In this document: positions 27,243-28,900 of the stretch, one piece after another | Layout of the letters: every line of letters starts with the position of its first letter | Position numbering within the stretch: position 1 is the first letter of the stretch | Sequence record: PZ386959.1 | Direction: 5' to 3' (one strand) | DNA: 64,000 nucleotides | From: a phage | Translations under genes and position numbers: made by a program | The notes under the pieces: model-generated | Seen by the model: the letters and a program-made list of their open reading frames with translations, nothing else | The model's database searches: none | What the model was told of the DNA's origin: nothing

Positions 27243-27316
27243 CTTATTAAAAGACCCTGTTTAAAGACCTTTTAAAAAGGTGAGTCTCATTTTAATGTAG
27301 CTGAGACTAACTACCC
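27243..27316. repeat. conserved 74-nt box, copy 1 (contains hairpin AGTCTCA / TGAGACT)
   Basis: CTTATTAAAAGACCCTGTTTAAAGACCTTTTAAAAAGGTGAGTCTCATTTTAATGTAGCTGAGACTAACTACCC; 73/74 identical to copy 2; a degenerate third copy lies at 27519-27553. Confidence 0.85.
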
Positions 27317-27389
27317 ATACATTACCTCGCCTAACCGCACCCGAATCAACCGGACTAGACCAAGCCCCACTGCACATCACCGAACCAAG

Positions 27390-27428
27390 CATCACTTAAA
27401 AATCCTCTTAGAAGACTCTTAAGTGATG
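27390..27428. repeat. long hairpin, copy 1 (10-bp stem, 19-nt loop)
   Basis: CATCACTTAA-aaatcctcttagaagactc-TTAAGTGATG; the two arms are perfect reverse complements. Confidence 0.8.
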
Positions 27429-27541
27429 TAATCGAATTTTTATGTAGCTCCGATTAACTACCCGCACTTTACCAAACCTCACCCTACCCTACCAGACCTT
27501 ACCTAACCGCGCCGTACCTCATTAAAAGACCCTCTTAAAGA

Positions 27542-27569
27542 CCTTTTAAAAAGGAGCCTCCGAAGAGGC
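27542..27569 (-). terminator. minus-strand terminator after the two-gene cassette
   Basis: Plus-strand GGAGCCTCCGAAGAGGCT hairpin (stem AGCCTC/GAGGCT, loop CGAA) preceded by CCTTTTAAAAAGG, i.e. hairpin plus U-tract on the minus transcript, 13 nt after the stop of 27582-28022. Confidence 0.5.
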
Positions 27570-27581
27570 TACCTAGTCAAC

Positions 27582-28022
27582 TTAGAAAGGTTTTCTACGT
27601 TGCTTGTTAATGTTAGCTTTCATAGCAGCTAAATGGTTTTGCTGTTCAATTAGTCGTGAACGTTCTTGATGACTAAGTGCCATAGTGTTCACATTCTCAA
27701 TCGCTTGAGTGGCTTGCTTTAAAGCACGACCAATCTTACCAGACATTTTACGTTTTGCAATAGTTGCTTGATGCTTAGGTTCAACCACACGATAACCAAC
27801 ACCCATTGAAGCAACCAGATAAATCTTCTCTTCTTTAAGAAGCTTCTCAATAAACTTCTCAAGTCGGTTTAGACGTGTAAGCGCATAAGCCTTCATTTCA
27901 TCTTCGTACTTAACAATGTCACCTTGATAAGTTGGTTTCACAATACCTAAGAAGGTATCCATCTCAGAATGTGATACAGTGTCACCGTAACTAAACTTTG
28001 CTGCTAATGCTTTTGTATTCAT
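27582..28022 (-). CDS. hypothetical protein (cassette gene 2)
   Basis: 146-aa ORF with a basic, helical C-terminal half; its stop is followed on the minus strand by a hairpin/U-tract terminator. Confidence 0.4.
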   Translation of the reverse strand: MNTKALAAKFSYGDTVSHSEMDTFLGIVKPTYQGDIVKYEDEMKAYALTRLNRLEKFIEKLLKEEKIYLVASMGVGYRVVEPKHQATIAKRKMSGKIGRALKQATQAIENVNTMALSHQERSRLIEQQNHLAAMKANINKQRRKPF

Positions 28023-28024
28023 AA

Positions 28025-28627
28025 TTAAACGTTACCTTCTGAAATAACTTCTACAGAAAAACGACCAAAGCGTGGACGCCAATCACCTACACCACAAAGG
28101 TTGCCAGCATTTTCAAGAACCATCAGAAGTTCCTCTTTGGTGATTTGCTCTTCATCGAACATCAAACCGAACTCTACAGACCAGTCACGGAAGATTGGAC
28201 GGTAGCTCATAACTCGTGCTGTACCAATCTTAACAGACTTAGCATAGATGAAGTCTGGATTCTTAGCAAGTTCTTGTGGGTTTGCTGGACAGTTCTTAAT
28301 AGTCATTGGGAAGACTACATCTGTCAGCATAATGGCTCGGTCAATTACCTTACCAAGTTTGTTGAGTTTTGCACCAGACTTGATACAAGCCTCAATCATC
28401 TCACCGTTCATAACAAAACCTAGCTGCTCATCGTAGTAACAAGAGGTTACCAGTTGGCTTTCTGCTAAGAGCGCATAGTCTTCGTCAGTCTTTTTACGTT
28501 TACTGGACAGAGACTTGTGATATTTTGTCAGAGGGTTTAATGGGTCTGACAGCGTATCGTTATGGCTCAGGAAAGGACGAGTACCAGTGATTTTGATATT
28601 TAACAGTTTCATAGCATTTAGCTCCAC
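28025..28627 (-). CDS. hypothetical protein (cassette gene 1)
   Basis: 200-aa ORF separated by 2 nt from the downstream gene; no motif recognised; flanked upstream by intergenic module R2. Confidence 0.4.
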
Positions 28628-28710
28628 ACTTTAGTTGATTGTTAAGTTGTTTGTAAAGAACCCTCAACAGAAGACTCTTTAGAAACTTGGTAGATTTTTA
28701 ACGTGGCTAC

Positions 28711-28900
28711 TACCATCCACCCATACCAGACCAGACCAAGCCAAGCCCAACACTACCGAACCGGACACGACCAGACCTTATTAAAAGACCCTGTTTAAAG
28801 ACCTTTTAAAAAGGTAAGTCTCATTTTAATGTAGCTGAGACTAACTACCCACACCAAACCATAGCATACATCGCATTACCGGACAGAACCATACTTTACC
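28711..28900. repeat. intergenic module R2: two arrays of 5-nt-phased NNACC pentamers (D 28711-28777, E 28841-28900)
   Basis: CC dinucleotides recur at 5-nt (occasionally 10-nt) spacing, for example 28722, 28727, 28732, 28737, 28742, 28747 and 28850, 28855, 28860, 28880, 28890, 28900. Confidence 0.8.
28777..28850. repeat. conserved 74-nt box, copy 2
   Basis: Identical to copy 1 except one G to A change (GGTGAGTC versus GGTAAGTC). Confidence 0.85.

Follow-up and report, generated by a model that had tools for sequence, protein, structure and literature searches.

A duplicated 74-nt box in a Felix O1-like phage as a constant scaffold of already described VIPR guide RNAs

VIPR (Viral Interference Programmable Repeat) systems, which were described in June 2026, are CRISPR-like and RNA-guided, and Felix O1-type phages use theirs as a weapon against a parasitic satellite. 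According to the preprint, these systems consist of a phage-encoded RAMP protein of ∼20 kDa (Vipr), an accessory gene (vap), and guide RNAs (vrRNAs) encoded on either side of these genes (bioRxiv 10.64898/2026.04.26.720920). Each vrRNA contains 9–16 GGY/NN (YNNGG) pentamers, in which GGY is conserved and NN is hypervariable, followed by an invariable 3′ tail of ∼40 nucleotides (nt) with a pseudoknot. In the model phage SUSP1, which infects Escherichia, one vrRNA lies upstream and three lie downstream, and all four were seen by small-RNA sequencing; RNAs of ∼100 nt, composed of the repeat tract and the tail, accumulate and co-purify with Vipr. The Vipr–vrRNA complex was reported to bind double-stranded DNA through the NN dinucleotides only, skipping one target base per unit, and to repress transcription, and perturbation of GGY abolished silencing. 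The targets of the SUSP1-clade guides are mostly in a satellite phage that shares a baseplate protein with SUSP1, and in other VIPR types the guides are separated by hammerhead ribozymes (bioRxiv 10.64898/2026.04.26.720920). Here, we analyzed a 64-kb stretch of phage DNA (record PZ386959.1; hereafter, the window), in which an initial annotation had drawn attention to a 74-nt box duplicated on both sides of a gene cassette. We conclude, with a probability of roughly 0.93, that the window belongs to a Felix O1-like (Ounavirinae) myovirus with a type II VIPR locus of the SUSP1 clade, encoding five vrRNAs. The box is the constant part between neighboring guide RNAs and forms their scaffold, and the finding is real but already explained by the 2026 preprint.

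The two copies of the box, at positions 27243–27316 and 28777–28850, were identical at 73 of 74 positions when aligned, as had been claimed, and the sole difference was G/A at box position 40. The identity ran a few bases past the box and then collapsed within the flanking pentamer arrays. The 20-mer core CCTTTTTAAAAGGTCTTTAA had three exact sites in the window (27261–27280, 27535–27554, and 28795–28814), all on the minus strand, against an expected count of 0.00 in 100 shuffles. With the 73/74 identity and three copies of the core where none was expected, the observation is real and far beyond chance. All genes of the region are on the minus strand, and the modules are read on the same strand. 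The strand and the direction of transcription given in the initial annotation were the right ones. On the minus strand, the box comprises a 34-nt H-type pseudoknot tail, a linker of 2–3 nt, and a 37–39-nt hairpin, i.e., GGGUAG-UU-AGUCUCA-G-CUAC-AUUAAAA-UGAGACU, the linker, and then CCUUUUUAAAAGGUCUUUAAACAGGGUCUUUUAAUAA, which is closed by the GG of the following repeat tract. The box is a composite of two separate modules, namely the tail of guide n and the 5′ hairpin of guide n + 1. Both the AGTCTCA/TGAGACT hairpin and the palindrome ACCTTTTTAAAAGGT were present as previously described. The core at 27535–27554 corresponds to what had been called a truncated third copy joined to a GC hairpin, and it does lie directly beside that hairpin (27555–27570); it is really just the hairpin module, and as it stands before the first downstream guide, no tail lies ahead of it. 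Further diverged copies of the halves are a tail variant, two box-prime hairpins, and one box-double-prime hairpin (Table 1). The box was confined to sites between guides, beside the GGTNN arrays, and is not a member of a generic terminator family scattered over the window.

The proteins encoded between the two boxes were almost identical to those of SUSP1. The open reading frame (ORF) of 195 amino acids (aa) matched the SUSP1 Vipr protein in PDB entry 36pp at 191 of 195 residues (E = 6e-128), and it was 97.9% identical to phiSUSP1 in a tblastn comparison. An AlphaFold2 (AF2) model of this protein, built with 47 homologues, had a predicted local distance difference test (pLDDT) score of 95.3 and matched Csm3/Cas7 RAMP subunits (E ∼3e-5, TM ∼0.5). 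The 146-aa ORF was identical at 145 of 146 residues to the gene that follows vipr in SUSP1, presumably SUSP1 vap1, for which a DNA-binding fold is predicted, and a PDB search with this ORF returned no match. Neither of the two proteins had a Pfam family, and in PHROGs they matched families of unknown function only. More distant Vipr homologues (35–50% identity) were found in phages of Gordonia, Mycobacterium, Pseudomonas (LESphi2), and Listonella as well as in many contigs from metagenomes (520 clusters), and this spread agrees with the wide distribution of VIPR given in the preprint (bioRxiv 10.64898/2026.04.26.720920).

The resemblance to SUSP1 extends to the whole locus. Vipr and the gene behind it are 98% and 99% identical, respectively, and the two phages also share the genomic position between the ligase gene and a 127-aa ORF, the promoter, the 5′ hairpins, the GGY/NN tracts, the pseudoknot tails, and the satellite family that is targeted under a 1-nt skip. 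They differ in the NN content of the guides, in the order of the hairpin types within the downstream array, and in the number of upstream guides, which is two in the window and one in SUSP1, with three downstream guides in both. The extra guide–tail–hairpin unit of the window creates the second copy of the 74-nt box. Based on the Vipr identity, the RAMP fold, the vap neighbor, and the common architecture, we assign the locus to type II VIPR of the SUSP1 clade. The window contained a vipr RAMP gene, an adjacent gene at the vap position, and GGY/NN vrRNAs with a pseudoknot tail; these vrRNAs lie in long intergenic regions flanking vipr/vap, and their satellite targets follow the 1-nt skip without self-targeting. 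In comparison with the crRNAs of class 1 CRISPR systems and their Cas7-family RAMP proteins (type I Cascade, type III Csm/Cmr), the common features are a RAMP protein, for which the Vipr model matches Csm3/Cas7, a variable guide with an invariant structured handle, and multi-guide precursors in which constant elements stand between the variable parts. In contrast to these systems, VIPR has no contiguous spacer, the specificity residing in dinucleotides interleaved with GGY; the locus contains neither cas1/cas2 nor any other cas gene; a pseudoknot and a hairpin, not a single repeat, make up the constant element; and the system is phage-encoded and aimed at a satellite.

We parsed 19 related loci and the window (20 loci) with one procedure, and the SUSP1 locus was parsed with the same script. 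In the window, matches to a GGTNN run numbered 43 against 0.37 expected, and were found only in the two intergenic regions flanking the cassette. The VIPR locus lies between the DNA ligase gene and the 127-aa ORF, and its order on the minus strand is promoter, two vrRNA units, vipr, the gene at the vap1 position, and three vrRNA units. Each unit consists of a G·U-rich hairpin of 37–39 nt, 10–14 GGY-NN pentamers, and the 34-nt H-type pseudoknot tail. Across the 20 loci, the promoter, hairpins, tails, and boxes were almost invariant, the NN content and the number of units differed completely, and GGT kept a strict 5-nt period in the arrays. The 59 distinct tracts were 8–18 units long, and their composition was G 0.80, G 0.98, and Y 1.00, followed by two near-random positions (∼0.1 bit). 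The promoter was kept in all of the related loci, including those without the cassette and that of Felix O1.

The targets of the guides were then compared with satellites in E. coli chromosomes. Among 5,426 complete E. coli genomes, 474 contained homologues of the SUSP1 baseplate gene, used as the satellite marker; some had two or three copies of the satellite, and JNEC-KY173, TL-14, and 20KM0223N are examples of carrier strains. The satellite is an island of ∼10–12 kb with a large serine recombinase, a tape-measure gene, and the baseplate gene, and it occupied at least four insertion sites (yciI/tonB; a split DUF72 gene next to yecD; lafU/dinB; and ymdF/wrbA). Nine satellite loci were compared (L030–L034 and L036–L039). 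As a positive control, distinct SUSP1/Felixounavirus guides were compared with the first satellite: with a 1-nt skip, 13 of the 55 reached 80% or more, and 0–2 did so with other skips. The guides of the window gave background only in this first satellite, and their matches emerged with more satellite variants. When all nine satellites were used at a threshold of at least 85% with a 1-nt skip, there were matches for 44 of 69 guides from cassette-bearing phages and for 5 of 11 guides from cassette-less phages, and for none with skips of 0, 2, or 3. The published 1-nt-skip code is independently replicated here on a second phage and ∼80 guides.

Four of the five guides in the window scored 86–100% on the satellites (Table 1). 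When the order of the units was shuffled for u1, d1, d2, and d3, all 200 shuffles stayed below the scores obtained with the first five satellites, and only background was seen with skips of 0, 2, and 3; for u1, this test used its score of 18/20, before later satellites raised it to 22/22. The skipped base was codon position 3 in every coding target of these guides, and a self-target scan of the window found no guide match better than 75%. Three of the guides converge on a 235-aa gene of the satellite and the region upstream of it, as would fit repression of transcription. This gene is annotated variably as “transposase,” and its protein had no Pfam or PHROG family. A blastn search of the 5,426 E. 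coli genomes with the downstream array region found no match, so satellite-borne vrRNAs, if any, do not closely share the tails of the window; GGYNN arrays were absent from the one satellite checked.

The target matches also bear on a different explanation of the arrays. In a TRAP-like leader, a ring protein would bind ∼11 spaced GGU triplets, switch between hairpins, and regulate the downstream operon, and ∼11 triplets with 2-nt spacers do resemble the trp leader of B. subtilis. Like the TRAP-trp leader RNA of Bacillus (11 G/UAG triplets with spacers of 2–3 nt), the tracts have a 5-nt period, a conserved triplet, free spacers, and ∼11 units, and GUAG/CUAC and AGUCUCA/UGAGACU could be read as competing stems. 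However, the triplet here is GGY, and the adjacent protein has a different fold, being a Cas7-like RAMP that is near-identical to the characterized Vipr and not TRAP-like. Both stems covary and can coexist in an H-type pseudoknot, and the locus has no alternative terminator/antiterminator logic. Moreover, the spacer dinucleotides match foreign DNA under a specific skip rule, unlike mere spacers, and encode a DNA address. We therefore assign practically no probability to a TRAP-like leader. Several further candidates were rejected because they leave the match of NN to foreign DNA under one skip rule unexplained: an R-loop or replication origin (a G-rich non-template strand past a strong promoter), primase recognition sites in arrays, a rut site for Rho on the C-rich plus strand, G-quadruplexes of two tetrads, sites for cold-shock proteins (GUCUUU), and the sponging of tRNA CCA ends by GGU.

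Both modules of the box had the properties of RNA structures. In the tail, GUAG/CUAC forms stem 1 (S1) and AGUCUCA/UGAGACU forms stem 2 (S2); the two stems interleave into an H-type pseudoknot whose third loop is A-rich. We aligned 17 distinct tails from the 20 loci and found that S1 occurs as GUAG/CUAC, GUGG/CCAC, or AAGG/CCUU and that S2 occurs as AGUCUCA/UGAGACU, AAUCGGA/UYCGAUU, GGUAG/CUACC, or GGCAG/CUGCC, i.e., the sequence differs and the pairing is kept. In this alignment, 94.1% of cells were paired and both-sided changes were found in 9 of the 11 pairs, and when partners were shifted by 1–3 columns as a control, the pairing fell to 27–37%. The 5′ hairpin (37–39 nt, 16 pairs) was aligned over its three sequence classes, box, box-prime, and box-double-prime, which have a common structure; compensatory changes were found at six pairs among 22 distinct versions. 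Several of the conserved pairs are G·U, and are possible only in the minus-strand RNA. Most of the variation was in the apical loop, where some phages have an insertion of 22 nt. This insertion, AAATTATATTCGATAGAGTATCTCATA, lies exactly in the apical loop of box-prime in phage bumzen (L001, ∼1709–1789 of the extracted region) and in three other loci, and its confinement to the loop fits a hairpin in which the stem matters and the loop does not. A search of positions 26000–30000 with the Rfam covariance models, with E up to 10, gave nothing meaningful. The strong constraint that had been suggested for the box, as a structured non-coding RNA or a protein-binding site, was the correct interpretation: the box is the invariable structured part of the Vipr-bound guide RNAs.

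The same structural data allow us to weigh a role of the boxes as DNA, either as operators that a phage DNA-binding protein recognizes through the ACCTTTTTAAAAGGT palindrome, or as young gene-converted direct repeats without RNA function. The sequence is indeed palindromic, a helix-turn-helix (HTH) regulator is encoded downstream (26178–26477), and the direct repeats flank a cassette that is present or absent among relatives, so they behave as recombination substrates. However, the conservation is strand-specific, in that the minus-strand G·U pairs would be A–C mismatches on the other strand, and the compensatory changes preserve RNA pairing in the tail and hairpin modules alike. The modules are also conserved between phages with wholly different flanking NN content, and in SUSP1 the matching regions are expressed as RNAs that co-purify with Vipr, according to the preprint (bioRxiv 10.64898/2026.04.26.720920). 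We consider that there is only a very slight chance that the boxes act as DNA in this way. Recent duplication or gene conversion, which the initial annotation had proposed, possibly contributed to the 73/74 identity, but it is not needed as an explanation, since the modules are equally conserved across the 20 loci including the window.

A third alternative, also put forward at the outset, is that the boxes are weak intrinsic terminators or attenuators, with the AGUCUCA/UGAGACU hairpin and CCUUUUU at the borders of the cassette. CCUUUUU does lie 2–3 nt past the hairpin, the truncated copy comes directly after a genuine terminator-like GC hairpin, and some termination at the boxes is possible and could even help to define 3′ ends. 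However, the terminator scan flagged only 27570–27555 and no box hairpin. The stem in question is S2 of the pseudoknot, since its 12-nt loop pairs with the upstream GUAG with compensatory changes, and the U-run is offset and base-paired as the 5′ arm of the next hairpin. Three other tails have no U-run after them (27430–27463, which is followed by CAUCAC…; 28689–28722; and 27160–27193), and the elements occur once per guide and not at the operon borders. On account of the pseudoknot stem, the paired U-run, the tails without a U-run, and the negative scan, the terminator or attenuator interpretation is unsupported, and we regard it as very unlikely.

For the VIPR interpretation, the protein identities, the repeat statistics, both RNA structures with their compensatory changes, and the target matches were computed here, and small-RNA expression, Vipr binding, and DNA repression would carry over from the SUSP1 preprint by analogy. 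As in SUSP1, Vipr would bind the vrRNA, and the complex would pair NN with double-stranded DNA, skipping one base per unit, and repress transcription. The pseudoknot tail is the constant handle of the guide. The box is nearly invariant because it is the guide scaffold, and the NN between the boxes are free to vary, since the target address is written in them. The E. coli satellite is addressed by four of the five guides, at the 235-aa gene, the region 50–150 nt upstream of that gene, and the large serine recombinase. The 5′ hairpin most likely marks a cut or assembly boundary at which a multi-guide transcript would be divided into vrRNAs of ∼100 nt, comparable to the hammerhead ribozymes of other VIPR types. 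A tract of 50–70 nt and a tail of ∼40 nt account for ∼100 nt, so the hairpin is probably removed. An RNA processing site, another early suggestion for the box, remains plausible for the hairpin half.

Several points weigh against this interpretation. First, the promoter scan found no promoter-like site ahead of the three downstream guides. Because no such site precedes them, these guides probably need read-through of the terminator-like hairpin at 27570–27555; the alternative is an unrecognized phage promoter. Second, the role of the 5′ hairpin in processing is deduced indirectly, and maturation into ∼100-nt RNAs in this phage is extrapolated from SUSP1, whose Vipr is 98% identical. Third, the covariation comes from few sequence classes (3–4 tail types and three hairpin types), and not from many independent lineages. 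Fourth, u2 had no significant target among the nine satellites, its score of 17/22 being equaled by 16 of 200 shuffles, and exact full-length 1-nt-skip patterns of u2, d1, and d3 had no match in IMG/VR. Finally, u1 has non-canonical GGY in half of its units (28851–28905; canonical in 5 of 10 units scored, with AGT, TGT, TGC, or GCT in the remainder), whereas perturbation of GGY abolished silencing in the preprint; its perfect target match argues for function without proving it. Either the tolerance at GGY exceeds the published account, or this guide is freshly decaying. The identical u1 tract was common to the window and the related loci L004 and L011.

Table 1. Features of the VIPR locus in the window, listed in the direction of transcription; guides are designated u (upstream) and d (downstream) of the cassette.
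Feature	Position	Strand	Support or detail
Sigma-70-type promoter, TTGACA-16-TATACT, drives the upstream vrRNAs and vipr-vap	28973–29000	-	11/12 matches
5′ hairpin box-prime, CAUCACUUAAGAG...UUAAGUGAUG, before upstream vrRNA 1	28904–28942	-	-15.9 kcal/mol, z -6.4; covariation
Repeat tract of upstream vrRNA 1 (u1/A1), 11 pentamers, degenerate in appearance	28851–28905	-	22/22 satellite match, in frame, in the 235-aa gene just upstream of the satellite tape-measure gene (L036, 7782–7813)
3′ tail pseudoknot of upstream vrRNA 1; right half of box copy 2	28817–28850	-	GGGUAG UU AGUCUCA G CUAC AUUAAAA UGAGACU
5′ hairpin spacer (box, CCUUUUUAAAAGGUCUUUAAACAGGGUCUUUUAAUAAGG) before upstream vrRNA 2; left half of box copy 2	28776–28814	-	Fold, covariation
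Repeat tract of upstream vrRNA 2 (u2/A2), 11 GGY/NN units	28723–28777	-	Best satellite match 17/22, in the recombinase gene; non-significant
3′ tail pseudoknot type 2a	28689–28722	-	S1 GUGG/CCAC, S2 GGUAG/CUACC
Hairpin box-double-prime, with no array following, just upstream of the vipr ribosome-binding site	28649–28688	-	-12.3 kcal/mol
vipr, 195-aa RAMP (Cas7/Csm3-like)	28025–28612	-	PDB 36pp identity, AF2 model
146-aa ORF at the vap1 (vipr-accessory) position	27582–28022	-	145/146 identical to the SUSP1 gene after vipr
GC-rich UUCG hairpin past vap, terminator-like, abuts the first downstream 5′ hairpin	27555–27570	-	Terminator scan
5′ hairpin spacer before downstream vrRNA 1 (truncated third copy)	27517–27554	-	Core match, fold, covariation
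Repeat tract of downstream vrRNA 1 (d1/B1), 11 units	27464–27518	-	20/22 satellite match, 50–90 nt upstream of the 235-aa gene (L031, 8561–8592)
3′ tail pseudoknot with a different stem 2, AAUCGGA/UUCGAUU, pairing kept	27430–27463	-	
5′ hairpin box-prime before downstream vrRNA 2	27390–27428	-	-21.1 kcal/mol, z -7.3
Repeat tract of downstream vrRNA 2 (d2/B2), 14 units	27317–27386	-	24/28 satellite match, in the large serine recombinase gene (L032, 13418–13458)
3′ tail pseudoknot of downstream vrRNA 2; right half of box copy 1	27283–27316	-	
5′ hairpin spacer before downstream vrRNA 3; left half of box copy 1	27242–27280	-	
Repeat tract of downstream vrRNA 3 (d3/B3), 10 units, all canonical	27194–27243	-	18/20 satellite match, 100–150 nt upstream of the 235-aa gene (L034, 8409–8437)
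3′ tail pseudoknot type 2b	27160–27193	-	S1 AAGG/CCUU, S2 GGCAG/CUGCC

We also analyzed the distribution of the cassette among related phages. The DNA at 27050–29050 was common to 231 phage records at 80–99% identity, nearly all of them Felix O1-like Ounavirinae, and 113 of these records covered at least 80% of the region. Matches to Vipr were found in 132 phage records, 118 of them at 90% identity or more. The Salmonella phages mostly had no cassette: 75 matched the DNA and 17 matched the protein. Five relatives from IMG/VR (L004, L007, L012, L018, and L023) had no vipr/vap, yet the promoter and two guide units were kept. In Felix O1, a single promoter–hairpin–array–tail unit was found between the ligase gene and ORF87 (L035:5640–5915; NC_005282, ∼57.6–57.9 kb), and the whole genome contained no Vipr or Vap homologue. 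The orphan guide of Felix O1 had no match in the nine satellites, which are from E. coli only (best 13/18). The genome paper of this phage lists other repeats, and not these. In about half of the related phages, Felix O1 included, promoter-driven orphan vrRNAs persist in the absence of vipr/vap. The 147-kb record GU169904.1, entitled “Staphylococcus phage SA1,” contained a Felixounavirus VIPR locus with 92% DNA identity and 99.5% Vipr identity, and this record is probably a chimeric or contaminated assembly.

The position of the boxes suggests how the cassette could be lost. Because the boxes are direct repeats, recombination between them would delete u2, vipr, vap, d1, and d2, resulting in exactly the architecture of L004, and this cassette-less phage carries the same u1 tract as the window. 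The 74-nt boxes plausibly mediate the loss or gain of the cassette. Phages carry solitary or orphan CRISPR repeat units and mini-arrays, i.e., guide-type RNAs without cognate effector genes, and these offer a lead for the interpretation of the orphan vrRNAs. Felix O1 and the cassette-less relatives examined are similar in having guides without an effector. In contrast, the orphan VIPR units keep the promoter, the full repeat tract, and the tail, and matches to satellite DNA persist in 5 of 11. One possible role for the hairpin half of the box is that of a maturation signal, e.g., an entry site for host RNase III or RNase E, or a nucleation point for Vipr, and the orphan vrRNAs may borrow Vipr from co-infecting relatives or act as Vipr decoys, rather than being recombination debris. 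That the hairpin half is a dedicated maturation or assembly signal and, at the same time, that the promoter-driven orphan vrRNAs are functional is a tentative joint reading, which we consider rather unlikely to hold in full.

The element belongs to a system that is already described and structurally solved (bioRxiv 10.64898/2026.04.26.720920; PDB 36pp), and its clade is that of the model phage; the contribution of this study to VIPR is incremental: the replication of the code, the compensatory support for both RNA modules, and the target map for the guides of the window. The compensatory support for the 5′ hairpin, the orphan vrRNAs, and the box–box recombination to a cassette-less architecture were absent from the available portion of the main text of the preprint. 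Two matters keep some interest, namely what the 5′ hairpin does and the orphan guides. Being direct repeats, the boxes can explain why vipr/vap is often lost, with armed guides left behind but no effector in many therapeutic or typing phages of the Felix O1 group; this is relevant to users of these phages and to the engineering of VIPR arrays. Working from sequence only, the initial annotation had on its own singled out the scaffold of a new class of systems for RNA-guided DNA recognition, which shows that genuine biology can be found by scans of this kind.

Two further elements were found at the edges of the locus. Downstream, an inverted repeat at 27113–27159 with 19-nt arms (89% complementary) is centered on the −35 TTGACA of the promoter of the next operon and is kept in all relatives, and it looks like an operator overlapping the promoter. 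This operon encodes a 127-aa secreted-looking protein, a 70-aa protein, and an HTH regulator. Upstream, a 48-aa hydrophobic ORF (29008–29154; phrog_22006), which separates the ligase gene from the VIPR promoter, is present in some relatives; in others, the site contains an unrelated segment of ∼190 nt, or the ORF is absent.

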